A DNA stretch of 62,673 bases, counting the filler, from Rhabdomonas costata (Eukaryota), in the NCBI GenBank assembly GCA_019059605.1. It is 41 parts of 41 records of this genome, joined end to end, with 100 filler letters (N's around TTAATTAATTAA, not from the genome) between each part and the next. Parts side by side here need not be neighbours in the genome. Positions count along the whole stretch, not along the records: positions 42,881 to 44,304 come from JAHMHO010016141.1; 40 more parts are not named here. The stretch is one strand, 5' to 3'. The notes beneath the pieces were generated by a model. That model was given only the letters and a program-made list of their open reading frames with translations, was not told the DNA's origin and searched no databases. Below, piece by piece: positions 7,468 through 44,304 of the stretch; position 1 is the first letter of the stretch; each line of letters begins with the position of its first letter. Made by a program: the position numbers and the translations under genes.

Positions 7468-9384
7468 GTCCGCTGCAGACTCACCCAAACAGCACCGACT
7501 ATGTCTTCCCTAACCACCGCCACCACCACTGCCAACCACCCTTCCCAAGACTAAAGACTGNNNNNNNNNNNNNNNNNNNNNNNNNNNNNNNNNNNNNNNN
7601 NNNNTTAATTAATTAANNNNNNNNNNNNNNNNNNNNNNNNNNNNNNNNNNNNNNNNNNNNGTTGGTGCTCTGCCAGATACTCTCTTACCACAGGATCTGG
7701 CAGAGCACCTCAACCCAGCCTTACCTTTGTGAGTTTTCGGCTTCATGTCAGCCCCAGAAGCAGACATTCACTGCATCCAAGTGTAATCTTGAACGTTTCT
7801 TCGTTTCTTATCATTTCCAACTATATCCAGAAGGTCATAAAGCGAAAGCATATCAAATAAACACCTAAAATGGAATCGTGGTACACAACGGAGTTAACGC
7901 CGAATATACTGCATCCATGGTGTTCAGCGGTGGACTCATTTCAAATCATACGACTCATCCCAGAAACAGTAGTGACGGAGCAATGGGAAGTTGCTCCGGT
8001 GAACCAATTGGTTTTCTCACCAAGAACTTTCAGATGTAGCTCCTACCAATGGCCCACATTAGCAGTTGATGGTGGACCGAGAATTCCCGGCGTTTTAAAG
8101 GTTGTTTGATACCACTCCACACGGTGCGAAAACAAATAAACAGTGCCATCACAGATTTTTTGCACTGGAGGTGGAAGAGTTTGTTACTACCAAGCAATAT
8201 TAGCGGGCTGTTTCTAGAGCGAAAATACAATACAAAACTACGGGTTTGCCTCGGAATGAGGTAGATAATGATCACCGACCAATTGAACACCCAACACACC
8301 AAGGATCACGCCGGAGGCTTCCACAGAATACGCATCACCCACACACCATGCACCGAGGATCACACCGAAGTCATCTTGGAATCACGAACCCAGCACCACA
8401 AGAAGCGTAGACAAACCGGCACCACACCACAAGGAACCCCCACACCCAACCCCAAAGCTCTCACTCAGCGGAAACAGAGACAGGATCGCGCCGAAAGCGG
8501 AAGTCAACCAAGGGAACCCACTACACAAATTCTCGCTCGAAGTCAAACCCAACAGCCCAGATTCAGAAATCAACACCATCGTAGTAGTTAGTAACGTAGC
8601 GAAGGAAAACAACAAACAACGGAAACAGGAACACGAACCAGGAGACAGAACCCGAAGACAAACGCCGCAGAACCCAACGCAACAAGAAGGCCAACTCTGA
8701 TACCGCCCATGAAACAAGAATGCACAGATGGATAAGGAGACCCGACAGTCCACGACAGCGACACGGCACTGTTTCGGCCTTCCAGCCTCATCGGGTGAAC
8801 AAGCAACCCCGAATGCAAAGACCAGACCCAAGAACGCGAAGACCTAACCCCGAGACAAAGACGCGAAACGGAGGCCGCCGAGGCCGACACACACGAATAC
8901 CACACTTGAAGACCTGAAGGCACGAACTCAGAACCCAAACACCCCAAAGACCCAAAGACCGAAGACCTCAACTCAGAATTCCGACCCCAACCCCAAAACA
9001 CGAAACCATAAACCCCACCTTCTCAACTATAAAATGGGAAAACCACCCATGACGCAACCCCCAAAACTACCACCCAAACACCTTACTATGTANNNNNNNN
9101 NNNNNNNNNNNNNNNNNNNNNNNNNNNNNNNNNNNNTTAATTAATTAANNNNNNNNNNNNNNNNNNNNNNNNNNNNNNNNNNNNNNNNNNNNGTGTTGGG
9201 TGTGGTTGGTGTGGTTGTTGCGTATCTTTGCGCAAGCGGCGATGAGCTCGTTTTGACGGTTCAGTCTCATCTACTTGGTGCGCCGAGCGCAGTCCCTACT
9301 TTTCAGACGCTCTTGAGGCTGGGCCATTTGTCGCACATTGGGTCATTCGCCACGAATAGAGGGATCACGGAGAGGAAAGGATAC

Positions 9385-16853: not shown

Positions 16854-17490
16854 GGGTTGTTTGTATCTGATGCCGAAATGTTGTTGGGGTTGAAATTTGG
16901 TTCGTTAACAAAGGCCAAAATCTCTCCTGTGTTGACATCTGCTACAATGGCGCTGGCAGTTTTCGCTCTGGTTGCATTTTTTATTTTTACCATTTCCTCA
17001 CAAACGATGCTCTGCAGGGCAAGATCTATGCTCAGCTCCACCGGTTCATTATTTACCTGACTCTTAATTTGTTCGTCTAATCCCCTTTCGATACCAGCTA
17101 ACCCATTTCCATCTGTGTCTACGTAGCCGGTTATATGCGCCAGTAGACTTCCATGAGGATAAAAGCGCTTATAGTCCCGTACACATTCTATACCCTCTAC
17201 ACCAAGTGCGTTGATCGCATCTTCTTCCGTTGGTGTGATGTTCTTTCGGATCCAGACAAAATTTCTCTGAGACGTAAGTTTTCTTAATACCTGTGAATAG
17301 TTTGTGTCCCTGAGCATCGCCGAGACCATTTTGGCGAGTTTCTTAGGATCATCTACCTTTTTCGGGTGCGCGAACAGACTGGCCGTCGGAATATTCTCGG
17401 CGATCGGGTTTCCATATCTATCGATTATTTCCCTTCTCACTAGGACGTGTGCTGCCGTTTTTTGTTGATTGAGTAGTAGAAACTCTTTAA
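16854..17490 (-). CDS. ftsI: Bacterial penicillin-binding protein 3 fragment (dimerisation domain and start of transpeptidase domain), Rickettsiales-like
   Basis: RREIIDRYG..IA.NIPTASLFAHPK, FVWIRK, KRFYPHGSLLAHITGYVDTDGNGLAGIE, LSIDLALQ, DVNTGEILAFVNEPNFNPN. No introns, and lower GC than the adjoining DNA. Confidence 0.93.
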
Positions 17491-17581
17491 CCTCCCCCCC
17501 CCCTAGAAAATGCTACTGTTCCTTGGTTTTTATCACCCAAAGGCATACGGGTTTGTACGTAGTGTTGTGTGTGCTCTGCAG

Positions 17582-17684: not shown

Positions 17685-20408
17685 GGTCCGCCCTCCCGGC
17701 CCCTTCTGGATCGCGCTTCCTCCGCTGGCTTTGTGTGATGGGCCTGTGTTCTTTCTCCTTGCTGTATTTTAGTCAATTGCTGTTTCTGCACACATCACTG
17801 TGTGTTTGTGTGGCACGCAATAGGTGTGCATGGTGGATGACATGGGCCCGCTTTCCCCCATCGCCTCGGCCTATGCTCGGGCCCGGGGTGCGGATCGCAT
17901 GTCCTCTTTCGGGGACTTCATCGTATGCACCCTTTGTGCTGTAGTTTTTCTTGTGTCAAAGAAAGGCGGTGCACGCGGGCTGTGTTTGTAAACGAAACTT
18001 CACTGTATTGCGGAAAGCCCCTTCGGCTATCGTGCCTCTAGCGCACCCACTTTCCCTTTCATGCAAACGACACTGTGGGCACACAAAGCAGTCCTTGCAC
18101 TCTGATGTCCTCTGCGACGGTTGCACTGGGCGTCATAAAAGCAACGTCGAAACCACGGTTAACAAAACATGCTCCCCTCTAAATCTAAACGGTAAAGGAG
18201 CACGCGAACACACGGAGGTGTGATCTAGGAACTCAGCTTGAGAAAGGGAATTGCTTTCACCAACAAACCCAAACACACCCACCACNNNNNNNNNNNNNNN
18301 NNNNNNNNNNNNNNNNNNNNNNNNNNNNNTTAATTAATTAANNNNNNNNNNNNNNNNNNNNNNNNNNNNNNNNNNNNNNNNNNNNGTGGGTGAAACAAGG
18401 AACAATGAAAACAAAACAACTACAGGAAAGCACTTCTCCGTTGTCATTCTTCTTGTTTTCATTGTTCCTTGTTTCACCCGTTCCACTTCTCGGTCTCACC
18501 GTTTCACAAGTCGTGGAAGAAAAGGCAAGACACGGGCGAACCACAGCATATAAGGCCCCCCGCTTGCTGTGGAGGTGCTCGAGGTGACATCATAGGTCTT
18601 CGCAATCTCATTCCCCATCGCTCAAGGAAAGAAAAACTTATAGCGGCGTGAGCCACAGGGTCCGTGGTTTGCAAAGGAAGTCCATAGTCCACAGGGCGAG
18701 CGAGCTTGATCGCATAACACAAACAAAAGAGCACACGATGCAGGAAAACTGCAATAGAAGAGCCTGGATGGACGGTGCAAATGGCGTATAAACACGACCC
18801 ACATAGTCAGATCCTGGCGTGGACCTCATAAATATTGAGGTGGGTCGGACTCATGAGACGAGTTGAAAGGCGCTTTTGGGCATAACACCCGGATTCGGCC
18901 GCTGCTTCAGCAACCATGCAAGGATCTTCTTGCGATTCCTGTAAACCTTTTCATGCATCTTTTTCTTGGAAAAGCGTAATTGGCTGACATAGCGGCGCCC
19001 GACCGTGCCGTGCCAGCGTTGTGCTATTTCCAAACATCTGAATCACGCCTTTCGCCTACCAGCCCACAAACTATCCCGCAGGTAAACACACGACTGCATC
19101 AGATTTTTCCGTGACTTTATTTTGTTTCAAAATTCCATGAAAATGATAGCTTTGCAGGAGTAATAGTAAAAAAACAAGATTGCTCCATTGGGAAGCAAAA
19201 ATACGACTACACAAGATGGAGAAGTTACCGAACAGCGCCATTCTCAGTCAACAACGATTCGCAGACACGTGCTGTGCACGAGTCCACCACTCGCATTGTA
19301 CACGGCAGGGGCATTGTGAAACTGTACAGAAGCCTGACAGGTGAGCAAAGGGCGCATGATCACGTCACACATGGGAAACAGAAACGTCCAGGCATACCAA
19401 CGTAAGAACGAACACAACTTGCCCAATGAACATCAGCACAAAAAAAGGGGGGAGGGGGGCACAGAGGATAAATGGAGATGGATGCGTGAGAAAGGGCTTG
19501 CAAAGTGTGGGTGGGGTGAGTGTGACACACTGAGGTGAAAACATAGGAGTAATGCTGCCAGAGGCAGCGGTGTTCGGAAGGGAGGAGGAGAAAAGGTGAG
19601 AAAGTGGTGGTGGCGACTCTTGGCCTGTGCGACGCACTGAGGTGATATCTCAGGAACACCTGCAGTGGCTTGAACAAGGCCTTCGCGGGAACAAAAAAGG
19701 GAAAGAAGAAGGAGGGAGTTCAAGAACGTTAAATTGTGTCCAGATTTCTTTGCAATGTGCCCCCTTCCAAAAACTGTCAGGACGAACTGACACACACACC
19801 CCAAACACACCCACCACNNNNNNNNNNNNNNNNNNNNNNNNNNNNNNNNNNNNNNNNNNNNTTAATTAATTAANNNNNNNNNNNNNNNNNNNNNNNNNNN
19901 NNNNNNNNNNNNNNNNNGGGTGTGGGGTGAGGCGCGGCGCGAGTTCGGGGAGTTTGGTGTATCAAGACGAGTTGCGGAGCGAAGGTGGTTAAGTCACCTT
20001 CTGAGGAGTTTGAGAAGCGACCGAGAGGGTGTGAAGGAGTAGCAGGTTGAGACCGAGAGTCGTCGACCAAAAGTACATAGGCTTGGGCAGCTGCATGGAG
20101 TGGTTGCGGCCAGGATCTACCCGGCCCTCGGCGAAAGCGAGACCAACCCGGTGGAAAGAAAGTCCCATCACCTAGGTGAATTGAAAGCGCTCGCAAAGCG
20201 AAATCTTGTCGGGAGGGACCACGGAGGCGAGCGGATCGAGTGAGCCACGTGGGGAAGTCGCAAGAGCTACGTAATTGGTCCGAGCCCGCCGTGCCGTCTG
20301 ACAGCAGAGGAAGAGTTAATGAGATCCTCTGCGGAGAAGAGGTACCACGTATCACCACCACACCATAACGGTTGACGGAGCATTCATCGACCGGTTAGGA
20401 CTCATGTG

Positions 20409-21349
20409 AGAAGACAACCGTACTTTTGTTCCAGCTTCCGTAATTGCGGAAATCATTCAAAAGTACCACGATTCCCCTGCAGCTGGACATTGGGTAATTC
20501 AACTGACCGTAGCCATGATCAAACGTCGCTACAACTTTCCACACATCAAGCGAAGCGTCCGCGACTATGTCAAAACATGCCACCAGTGTCAACTGAGTAA
20601 GGCAGAGCACCATCTACCGCGTGGTCTACTGGAAGCTCTAAAGATTACTAAACGAAAATGGCAGTATGTCTCAATGGACTGGACAAACGTGGATGAGTGC
20701 CAACTACAAGGCAACCGAATGGTCTTTGAAGAGATCCTAAAGGTCACAGACAGTGGAACAAAAATGGTTCATTTGATTCCAATCAACAAGCACCACACTG
20801 CAGAGATGACAGCAGACCAGTTTTTGGATGCTGTTGTCAAGTACCATGGGCTACCGCGAAGTTTGGTCTCCGACAGGGATCAGCTTTTTATGCGGACCTT
20901 TTGGAAGACAGTGTGCAGAGCCCTGGACATCAAAATACGAGCTTCAACCTCGTACCATCCACAGACTAACTGGCAAGCTGAACGGACTAATCAGACACTA
21001 AAGCAGGTCCTCAGAATACTGCAGATCCAACGACCTAACGTTCCCTGGATTCATCACATATCGTTTGGCGGAAATGGCCGTCAACAAAGCTTCAATCGCT
21101 AGCACGTAGTTTAGTCCATACTACCTGAACTATGGATTCCACCATGTTCTCTTTGGTGATCTACCAGATGCTGCCTATCCGGAGCAGTTCTACGCTAGAG
21201 ACAGTCAAGGAGTTTGTCAAGCGGTTGAAACAAAATTGGAAAGACATTCAGGCCTCCTTTGAAAAGAACCAAGAAAGCATGGTGGCTGAAGCCAACAGAA
21301 AACGACGGGACTACGAGTTCAGCGTAGGCAATTTGGTACTGGTCAACCA
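20409..21349 (+). mobile_element. Ty3/Gypsy LTR-retrotransposon integrase, degenerate
   Basis: HHCC finger (YHDSPAAGH...CHQCQ), SMDW, YHGLPRSLVSDRD and YHPQTNWQAERTNQTL. Frameshift and stop at about 21065-21110. C-terminal ANRKRRDYEFSVGNLVLV. Confidence 0.95.
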
Positions 21350-26041: not shown

Positions 26042-26800
26042 NGGGGTTGTGGGCATCTTATTATCTTCTTTTTTATTAATAATTCTATTTCTTATAGCTA
26101 TATATTTTTTCTTCGATTACGAGATTGTAAACATTGATTGAAATATTAAAGAATAGTTCAATATTTTCTATTTCGTGCATGTCAATACCAAGTTACTGTT
26201 CGTGATTAATTTCTTTTTCATTTTGATTGTAATATTTGTAAATCTTTTGATATTTTAAGTTTTCATTTTCAACATTTGGGCTATAAAATTTAGCTAAACA
26301 TCGCCAAAAACATAATTTATCATCTTCTTTTGTTTGATTATTTAGTGCTGTGTAGATCATTTTTGAATTCAATAGAACATTTGGTAATTGTATCTGTGTG
26401 CCTATAGGATCATGAAGTTGATATATTTTAACAAATATTTGATAAACTCCTAATACCTTTGTTTGGCTATTTGGTCTTGCCTCTGATATTTTGCTATTAA
26501 ATTTTTTAATATCAAATAAGTGTATCTTTTCAATAAGTTTCATTAAATCAAAATAATTTCTTATTAACATTGGTTCGTTTAGTAATGATTTATCATCACA
26601 TCCATGGCCAATACTGTATACAAAATAAATAGAATATCCTCTATCGTCATCGGGCACAATAATTTCTTCAAAAACATAACCAAACGATACATTAATTTTA
26701 AATGCAAATTGTTGGGTGTTGTGTATAATTTTATTAAATTAGATTCAATATCTTCAAACGATCTTATGGTATTGAAAATATAGATGCAATATCTCTATAA
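26042..26800 (-). pseudogene. Polinton/Maverick/PLV-type protein-primed DNA polymerase B N-terminal region, degenerate, in a very AT-rich island
   Basis: QQFAFKINVSFGYVFE, PIGTQIQLPNVLLNSK, DDKLCFWRCLAK and Q*LGIDMHEIENIELFFNISINVYNL resemble pPolB N-terminal motifs. Frameshift at about 26735 and in-frame TAA at 26193. Confidence 0.75.
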
Positions 26801-38288: not shown

Positions 38289-39649
38289 GGTGGGTTGTTC
38301 TGAAGCAGCTGCGTTTGACGTCCAGGCCTGGTCTAAAGGCTGCGAGTCTGGTGGATGCAGCTGGGAGCGTTCTCGTGTCCGACCTGTTAAATTCCGCCAA
38401 CGACAATGGACGAATGCTAACTGATGGGGATTCCGTGTCAGTCATAACCGAACGGATACCAGTCGAAGGTGCTCGATTGCACGTTGTGGGGACCATTGAT
38501 GAAGGCAGCACGGTTTCCTCTGGGGCTATTCCAACAGCTTTTGTCCAAATGGAAATTCCCGAGAGTTCCCAGGGGAGTCTGGCACGACTTTGTGCTCTTC
38601 GTGAAATTAATCGTTTGCTGTCACAAAGGAAAACCGACGCTGCGGTGGAAAAAAGCATCGCATGCGGGGTTATCTGCCGAGCTACGTGCTTCCTGATCGA
38701 AGGAGTTGAATCTACCACAGTGCGTTATCCTATGAAGCGCGTTCCCCACCCACCTCAGTGCTCAGCAACATCTTTCGCTGGTGCTAACCTCTGCCATGAG
38801 CAGATCGCAGAATTTCGGGAGGCTTTTTCTTTGTTCGACAGGGACGCGGACGGGACAATTGCCACCCATGAACTGGTAACCGTACTCCGGGCTCTGGGGC
38901 AGAACCCCACTGCTGCAGAGGTGCAGGATATGGTGAACGAGGTGGACCAGGATGGGAGTGGTACCATTGACTTTCCTGAGTTTCTTTCACTGATGTCATG
39001 CAGGATGTGCGACACAGACACTGAGCAGGAGTTAGGTGAAGCCTTTCGTGTCTTTGACAGGGATGGCAATGGTTTCATATCAGTCACGGAGCTTCGCCAC
39101 GCATTAACCAACTTGGGCGAGATGCTTCCTGACGACGCTATTGAAGAAATGCTCCGCGAGGTTGAGGTCGATGGCTGTGGTCTCGTCAATTACGAAGAAT
39201 TTGTTAAGATGATGATGTCAATGGACACCCCAGCTACTGCGCCGGTAACTGGCATTCCATCCCTGGCGCCACCTGTGGCGAGCACATCGCGGCAAGCTCC
39301 AGCATCTGTTACCGTCCATGACTTGCTCCTCCTGCAGTCGTTTGAAGGATCTTGGAGTTTACGCGAGGTTCTTCGAGCTTGTGGAGGATTGAGCTCAACG
39401 TTCACCCCTGATACGGTGGCTTGGAACGCCCTGCTCCCTGTTGGACTTGAGCGTGACGTCGGGGACACTCTATTGGTGACTTTGCTGGCACTGTTGGTGC
39501 TCCGCACTAGGTTCGTCTCAGAGCAATTAGCTTGGCAACTCATGGCTGAGAAAGGTATGCGATGGATTTCGGAAAGCGTCCCGCAGTTTTCCACGGTAGC
39601 CTCAGTTCGCTTGGACGCGGCCTTCACGGCTGCCTTCAGCGGTTCTTAA
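38289..39649 (+). CDS. VWA5/PARP4-like (VIT-vWA family) C-terminal region with an embedded calmodulin, 5'-truncated and intronless
   Basis: [13 protein letters not shown]...[18 protein letters not shown] precedes, and [13 protein letters not shown]...[12 protein letters not shown]...[12 protein letters not shown] follows, a four-EF-hand calmodulin at 38789-39220. Confidence 0.85.
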
Positions 39650-42880: not shown

Positions 42881-44304
42881 AAGAAGAACATTGCTAACCT
42901 GCAAACGAAAGCATTGCACTCCAACAACAGGAAACCACAAAGTACCACAAACCACAAACCACAAGTGGAGGGTGGAGAGGTACGAAAAAAAAGAAGGTAA
43001 GGCACGAATCAAAGCACTGCGGAAGAGCTGAGCGTAATAGTGCCAAGTGCACACAAAGACGCTCAACAATTCAATAAGCAACCAGCAGCATCGCCATGTA
43101 GTCCGCGCTGAGCCCGCGCAGCACTCCGACCCACTCAACGTGAGGCAGGCCGGTCAGCGGGAGCAGAACCCGCCGGGTGAGCCCAGAGGCTCCAGCTGAT
43201 TTCTGAACAGGAAAAGGGGGGTCGCGAAGATTGTAATTACAGGAAGCAAACCGAGAAAAACAAAATACCCATAGCTGCTTCTTCCAGTGAACGCAAGCGC
43301 AAACAACCAAAATCCCCTCCTCCCACAGTTAATGACCCCACTCCTACCACACCATTCACACCGCAAAGCTCACGTTCAACCACACCTCATCTCATTGAAG
43401 TGCTCTGTTTCTCTTTGCCCGCCACTCGCACGCTCACAACAAGGCCTTCTTCTCCGGGCTCAGTGCTCAAAGCCACCCCTCGACCGAACTCCCTGACCCC
43501 CAAAGAAGAAACCAAGGCGGGTTGAGACAAAGGAGTGAAGGAAGCACTGCAGCGTTTTCCAATCCGCGAAAATCGAATCAAAATCCTCCTTTAAACGGCA
43601 GAGATGCCGAGATTCCTTATATCTTCCTTTTTTCGGGTGTCCAGGCCCACTTTCGGGACACACCACTGAGACAAAGTACGTGTACGACTCCCAGGCCGCG
43701 GCGAAGCCCCGGCGGTAAACACTGTCCTCCCCATGGACAAACTGCCAGCACCAGAACCTGAACTTCGGGTGGGCCTTGTGCTGAGGCAGCTGCATGTACA
43801 GGTAGCAAACCAGCTCGCACAGACCCTGGAGAAGGGGATAGAACAACCCTTGCAACACAACGGCATAATTTTCAACAAATCCACGCTGGTGTCCTGGTGA
43901 CAGAAAAGAACAAGTATTGCACTCTTACAAAGTCTGTAGGAGAGTGTGCGAGCTTCGAAGCAAGATGAACTCGATCCCCAATTTGAAATTGTGCAAAATC
44001 CGCACCTCCTCAACTATCACACCCATGTTCAGCACGTCGAAGCCCGTAAGGAAGAGGTAGGCATGGGTGAGCTCGTGGGCCTGTCGGGCGACCCAAGAAA
44101 GCTCGAGGGGCACCTCTCAAACTTTCATGCCAAGAATTGTTTGAAACGGCTGCTTCCTAAAAACGTGTCACTTGGAGAAGAAGAACATTGCTAACCTGCA
44201 AACGAAAGCATTGCACTCCAACAACAGGAAACCACAAAGTACCACAAACCACAAACCACAAACCACAAGTGGAGGGTGGAGAGGTACGAAAAAAAAGAAG
44301 GTAA
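42881..44304. repeat. Contig-spanning direct repeat with period 1,297 bp (42881-43000 repeated at 44178-44304)
   Basis: The two ends are identical except for one extra ACCACAA unit in the second copy. Confidence 0.95.
43083..44080 (-). CDS. DA1-like (DUF3633) zinc metallopeptidase domain in four circularly permuted exons (44080-44006, 43825-43680, 43492-43438, 43202-43083)
   Basis: VGVLRGLSADYMAMLL|AHELTHAYL...VEE|GLCELVCYLYM...DSVYRRGF matches DA1 AHEMMHAWL, EEG+C and S.VYG.GF. Confidence 0.85.

Follow-up and report, generated by a model that had tools for sequence, protein, structure and literature searches.

A self-closing contig of Rhabdomonas costata carries exons of a divergent DA1-type peptidase and may represent a collapsed tandem duplication

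Introduction

Plant DA1 and DAR proteins are ubiquitin-activated peptidases (Pfam PF12315, DA1-like), and the LIM+DA1 architecture is usually discussed for plants. At the sequence level, the DA1 motif is given by Dong et al. (2017, PMC5322733) as HEMMHX15EE. Complete LIM+DA1 proteins of 357–440 residues turned out, in the search for relatives reported here, to be common in bacterial metagenome bins (Magnetococcales, Anaerolineae and Acidobacteriota are among the source names), where each is a single continuous chain that combines LIM domains with one complete peptidase domain and a C-terminus of the ...RFP type. On the side of sequence assembly, a tandem repeat at least as long as its period plus k is described as appearing in a de Bruijn graph as an elementary cycle (PMC4582210), and tandem repeats are described as giving high-coverage cycles that are hard to separate from circular replicons in an assembly graph (plasmidSPAdes preprint, 10.1101/048942).

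Here we describe a contig of Rhabdomonas costata that has likenesses to, and differences from, each of these systems. As in plant DA1 and DAR proteins, its predicted peptide has the zinc site of clan MA (HELTH, 17 residues, EE, then GLC), with the flanking GL...LAHE and Y..GF blocks conserved; unlike them, it has a spacer that is two residues longer (17 versus the 15 of the published motif), it corresponds only to about positions 55–193 of the 213 in the Pfam profile (our estimate), and no UIM, LIM or LIM-like region was found on the contig (42881–44304). By BLASTP, the spliced peptide matches best the bacterial LIM+DA1 proteins from metagenome-assembled genomes (MAGs), at 41–43% identity over ~90 residues; core motifs and spacing are the same, whereas the copy on the contig is partial and split by GT-AG introns. 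As in de Bruijn "whirls", the contig ends repeat by about a k-mer length and the unit is longer than k, but this unit, unlike anonymous satellite DNA, belongs to a protein-coding gene and has intact exons.

Materials and methods

The window, by which we mean the whole stretch of DNA analysed, is 62,673 bases long and consists of 41 contigs of 1424–1434 bp each (~1430), with spacers (N/TTAATTAATTAA) between them; all coordinates are positions in the window. The contig of interest (42881–44304, 1424 bp) is exactly one of the 41.

To gather the family, PF12315 was searched for in 401 genomes sampled from a single phylum, that of a Rickettsiales-like entry; three of the 401 matched, each with a frame of the LIM+DA1 type. 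These three LIM+DA1 proteins seeded two protein searches that yielded 91 DA1-like proteins, mostly from bacterial metagenome bins, with a few from green algae, protist transcriptomes and a plant. A local family model of 199 positions was built from the 91 DA1-like domains. For putative exon W, which was scored against shuffles, the shuffle P does not depend on the background frequencies used.

Results and discussion

Geometrically, the two ends of the contig are a direct repeat, as the earlier note on this DNA had recognised. The first copy measures 120 nt (42881–43000) and has three ACCACAA units at 42944–42964, the second measures 127 nt (44178–44304) and has four at 44241–44268, and the two are identical save for that one extra 7-nt unit. 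Measured start to start, the copies lie 1297 apart ahead of the microsatellite and 1304 apart beyond it, the contig spans 1.09 periods, and, on the minus strand, the first copy falls within the intron that leads from exon X to exon Y (see below). All contigs of the window were checked for a terminal repeat of this kind, and it was found in this one of the 41. The contigs are listed by descending size, with five of them (those starting at 9193, 26043, 27569, 39820 and 42881) off-order by 1–7 nt, which suggests that the contigs were edited (polished) after sorting. The contig of interest sits between neighbours of 1431 bp, i.e. it is exactly 7 nt short, and 1431 − 127 gives 1304, the longer of the two periods. 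From the extra ACCACAA unit, the earlier note had argued for at least two distinct copies; the unit does hint that reads with three and with four units both exist, but the step to two copies within a single molecule does not follow from it, as polishing offers a second explanation. The difference suggests that both versions were among the reads, as could be the case with different copies, with alleles or with a mixed population.

On the minus strand, four segments that each follow CAG and precede GT add up to 396 nt (55 + 120 + 75 + 146) in a frame that stays open around the circle, just as the earlier note had described. Exon X (43083–43202; acceptor TTCAG, donor GTTGCT) supplies 40 codons (KSAGASGLTRR...YMAMLL; GC3 0.78), exon Y (44006–44080) supplies 25 codons (AHELTH...VIVEE; GC3 0.80) in which lie the HExxH zinc site and the beginning of the EE pair, and exon Z (43680–43825) supplies 48 codons plus 2 nt (GLCELV...YRRGFAAAWESY; GC3 0.85). 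Between Y and Z lies a GT..AG intron of 180 nt (43826–44005) with one in-frame TAA inside; the X-to-Y intron begins with 202 nt at 42881–43082 and continues at 44177–44081, for a length of 299 or 306 nt around the loop; and the Z-to-X interval (43203–43679, 477 nt) contains the fourth segment, putative exon W (43438–43492, 1 nt plus 18 codons). Compositionally, the pooled GC3 of X, Y and Z is 0.81, and the T-rich spacers have 45–50% GC. Since X, Y and Z are GC3-rich, are bounded by AG and GT and, when joined, score high on the family model, they are real exons of the catalytic core of a DA1-type peptidase. Of the four exons that had been proposed, these three stand on their GC3, splice bounds and family score, whereas W has neither significant homology nor a comparable GC3. 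With their intact frame, catalytic residues and high GC3, X, Y and Z leave the unit without visible decay, and such intactness points to either a recent event or constraint.

The DA1-like nature of the coding pieces, which had been proposed before, is supported by the Pfam match of exon Y, the ESM Atlas neighbours of exon Z, the family-model score and BLASTP. Taken alone, exon Y matches PF12315 with E = 0.0015 over profile positions 98–118 of 213 (18.4 bits, under the 25-bit gathering cut-off), and exons X and Z alone had no Pfam match; a read-through from Y across the intron into Z, with the intron stop written as residue X, scored 14.6 bits on Pfam and added nothing. In the ESM Atlas, ranks 2 and 3 for exon Z were DA1-like clusters (score 0.88), which we take as a lead only, and exon X had no usable match. 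On the local 91-sequence model, the separate reading frames scored 18.7 bits (Y), 22.5 bits (Z) and about zero (X), and the spliced peptide scored 75 bits per unit (75.7 bits for joined X-Y-Z). By BLASTP, the spliced peptide is 34–43% identical to family members, in an alignment that extends as far back as SGLTR, the motif at the start of X, and in a MAFFT alignment X, Y and Z fall in consecutive columns of the family, without a break at either ...YMAMLL/AHELTH... (X to Y) or ...VEE/GLCE... (Y to Z). Because the family-model score, the BLASTP alignment and the MAFFT columns all run through them, the X-to-Y and Y-to-Z joins are real. The exon order on the contig is circularly permuted relative to the family: the alignment passes straight through the X-to-Y join, so X comes before Y, an order that a linear contig cannot provide and that calls for a second unit or a circle. 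The earlier note was thus right that X must precede Y and that only a path across the contig ends allows this.

At the level of motifs, HELTH in exon Y aligns to the HExxH of the family, and the Glu pair followed by G-[IL]-C is present as EEGLC across the Y-to-Z junction; the HELTH-X17-EE spacing, at 17 versus 15 residues, is seen as a two-residue insertion in the model alignment. Functionally, membership of the peptide in the DA1-like family is supported by motif and profile, and its peptidase activity and ubiquitin activation are putative. In a quick tree that kept all 92 rows, the window sequence forms the longest end branch (2.0) and lies within an unresolved polytomy. The contig appears to carry a new, divergent, intron-split member of the DA1-type peptidase family.

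In extent, X-Y-Z match model positions ~59–171 of 199, with X at ~59–100 (the strand and loop ahead of the active-site helix) and Z at ~124–169, and they leave out ~58 N-terminal and 16–28 C-terminal positions. Model positions 1–58 and 172–199 had no match in the other reading frames of the unit on either strand, and a tblastn search with the 91 family proteins for DA1-like or LIM-type sequence in the 41 contigs matched only the X/Y/Z region of this contig. The peptidase domain on the contig is incomplete. None of the 91 relatives has more than one DA1-like domain; the seven with two rows in the search show consecutive pieces of a single domain.

Wider searches with single exons were made with the Y and Z frames. 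A word-indexed search with the Y reading frame gave 11 candidates, none at E <= 0.01, and a scan of prokaryote genomes with the same frame gave 408 pattern matches, none of which was confirmed. Likewise, none of the 148 pattern matches from a metagenome scan with Z was confirmed, and the one phmmer match of the Z frame among 1.84 billion representatives, a bacterial repeat protein of 2336 residues, was rejected as spurious (it shares a PRFRFWHWY-type motif only). Our literature search found nothing that couples "DA1-like" with "dinoflagellate". A plastid minicircle and a bacterium were both rejected as sources of the contig: the breaks in the conserved domain coincide exactly with spacers that are bounded by GT..AG and contain stops.

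Elsewhere in the window, the contigs are of mixed character. The contig at 38289–39719 carries calmodulin-like EF-hand pairs (EF-hand_7, 111 bits) in an uninterrupted plus-strand frame of 452 residues (38291–39646) with long non-EF-hand flanks on either side, another contig carries a PhyH dioxygenase, and the contig at 19918–21349 carries a retroelement integrase (20410–21099, plus strand; Integrase_H2C2 at 65.5 bits, and an rve core at 30.9 bits, slightly below its cut-off). On the minus strand of the contig at 16854–18285, the frame 16856–17512 encodes a fragment of a penicillin-binding-protein (PBP) dimerisation domain (PF03717, 55 bits) that is ~50–51% identical to two Rickettsiales MAGs, which points to DNA of a Rickettsiales-like associate or endosymbiont mixed into the eukaryote assembly. 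With its mix of EF-hand, PhyH, integrase and bacterial-type PBP contigs, the assembly is therefore a very fragmented eukaryote draft with some admixed bacterial DNA. The contig at 26043–27468 has 33% GC against ~50% elsewhere and may be organellar, viral or other-organism DNA; its open frame of 181 residues (26196–26738, minus strand) had no Pfam match. Across the whole window, an Rfam scan gave no matches, and a 21-nt dinoflagellate spliced-leader motif (up to three mismatches allowed) was not found.

The earlier note had gone further and read the four segments as an endless in-frame peptidase. This claim depends on W and, as frame closure is expected by chance, it is not established. Putative exon W, a GC-rich island (~0.60) between a CAG acceptor and a GTGAGC donor, has no verified homology, and its similarity to the family was not significant in either of its possible positions (before X or after Z). 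As the N-terminal part of the domain, W gave gapless scores of −2.6 to −14 bits, and as the C-terminal part it gave −4.8 bits versus −9.9 ± 4.4 for shuffles (P = 0.13), so neither placement was retained; when W was appended after Z, the model score rose by ~2 bits. The best register sets its ...STEPGEEGLV against ...LPPEVEEGLC of the family (register 111, 6.2 bits; short-BLAST E >= 0.84), a similarity that is not significant, though W might be a decayed remnant of a Y/Z junction. Its GC3 is 9/18 (0.50), which differs from the X/Y/Z rate with P = 0.0025; other genes in the window have a GC3 of 0.54–0.69, and this range, together with the GC-rich island, makes some exon in the W region plausible.

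As for the frame, its closure says little, because 49 AG..GT segments within the 477-nt Z-to-X interval restore it without a stop, and shuffled versions of the interval hold 37 such segments on average, with at least one in 500 of 500 shuffles. Were all four exons real, one in three random duplication joints would still close the frame. The lack of a stop around the loop is owed to the splice sites chosen: reading on past the Z donor meets a stop at 43462–43460, and reading on past the W donor meets a TGA at 43389–43387, 16 codons on. A tail that ran past W to this TGA would resemble the short tails that follow ...RFP in the bacterial LIM+DA1 proteins. Most likely, then, the open circular frame is incidental and would serve no function as a loop frame.

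The earlier note correctly named a tandem block and a small circle as the two options for a self-closing contig; on a slight balance of probability we favour a head-to-tail duplication, or array, that collapsed in assembly and whose unit is a ~1.3-kb segment from inside a DA1-type peptidase gene. On this reading, the nuclear DNA of an intron-bearing eukaryote would contain two or more head-to-tail copies of the segment, an internal piece of a DA1-type gene (clan MA, HExxH...EE). Exons X, Y, Z and possibly W would belong to it, and the LIM region, domain positions 1 to ~58 and a verified C-terminus would be missing from it. The assembler would have merged the copies into one loop, and it is because of this collapse that the exon order would look permuted; the duplication joint itself would lie somewhere in the Z-to-X interval (43203–43679). 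From the 127-nt end and the 7-nt shortfall relative to the 1431-nt neighbours, we infer that the contig was a closed cycle of a de Bruijn graph with k=127, written out with a 127-nt overlap, and that polishing later took one ACCACAA (7 nt) from one end. The absence of attached flanks argues that the isolated cycle is a better fit to a circle or a many-copy array than to a two-copy duplication. Two further points weigh against the favoured reading: X, Y and Z show no visible decay, and the W region, with its good splice signals, does close the frame, an outcome whose likelihood is roughly threefold higher for an in-frame repeat under selection than for a random joint.

Nearest to the collapsed duplication stands an extrachromosomal DNA circle of ~1.3 kb that left the DA1-like locus, or a tandem array of it, by excision and was sequenced together with the chromosomes, which we consider unlikely. 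Extrachromosomal circular DNA arises from repeated chromosomal segments, its size range and absence of replication function would fit the contig, and such a circle would be over-represented if the DNA was amplified by rolling-circle-prone methods. The unit shows no signs of replication or maintenance and holds only nuclear-type exons and introns, which tells against a circle, and the source of such a circle would usually be tandem repeats, so that the array remains compatible with it; yet the closed cycle of the contig stands alone, without attached flanks, its 3- versus 4-unit microsatellite could reflect a mixed circle population, and circles and tandem repeats are described as looking alike in assembly graphs (10.1101/048942). 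An artefact of assembly or library is quite improbable. Here the gene would be a single-copy (W)-X-Y-Z gene, and a chimeric read or amplicon would have joined the sequence downstream of Z to that upstream of X, to close a false cycle in a region of low coverage. This would require that the true flanks of a single-copy locus were lost while one chimeric path was kept; moreover, the pattern occurs in one of the 41 contigs and is not systematic in the assembly, and the ends, with their unequal microsatellites, suggest that more than one version was among the reads. What speaks for an artefact is the extreme fragmentation of the assembly into contigs of ~1.43 kb, the presence of foreign DNA (the PBP-like contig, ~51% identical to Rickettsiales MAGs) and the lack of an independent copy of the locus in the collections searched.

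The most far-reaching reading, in which units of a four-exon block array are spliced Z-W-X in frame to give a protein of repeated 132-residue DA1-like catalytic modules, strikes us as very unlikely. The open circular frame with canonical CAG and GT sites, the position of W in a GC-rich island and the retention of HExxH, the EE pair and high GC3 in X-Y-Z are all consistent with it. Against these stand the GC3 of 0.50 and non-significant homology of W, the 49 alternative frame-closing segments with their counterparts in every shuffle, and the absence of a start codon from the unit; in addition, each module would be short of ~58 N-terminal and 16–28 C-terminal model positions, and repeated domains occur in 0 of 91 relatives. 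The poly-peptidase of the earlier note thus finds no support, given that closure is expected by chance, that each unit holds a partial domain and that multi-domain relatives were not found among the 91.

Conclusions

Above all, the contig serves as a warning. Permuted exons on a short-read contig that closes on itself are the expected look of a collapsed duplication, and chance readily yields an open frame around such a loop. Beyond this, the search for relatives revealed many bacterial LIM+DA1 proteins in metagenome bins, and the contig itself documents what appears to be a divergent, intron-split DA1-type peptidase in a eukaryote. If units were indeed spliced to one another, the locus would encode a multi-module DA1-type peptidase, the first of its kind, and would cleanly illustrate how exon-block amplification can create a new protein architecture.
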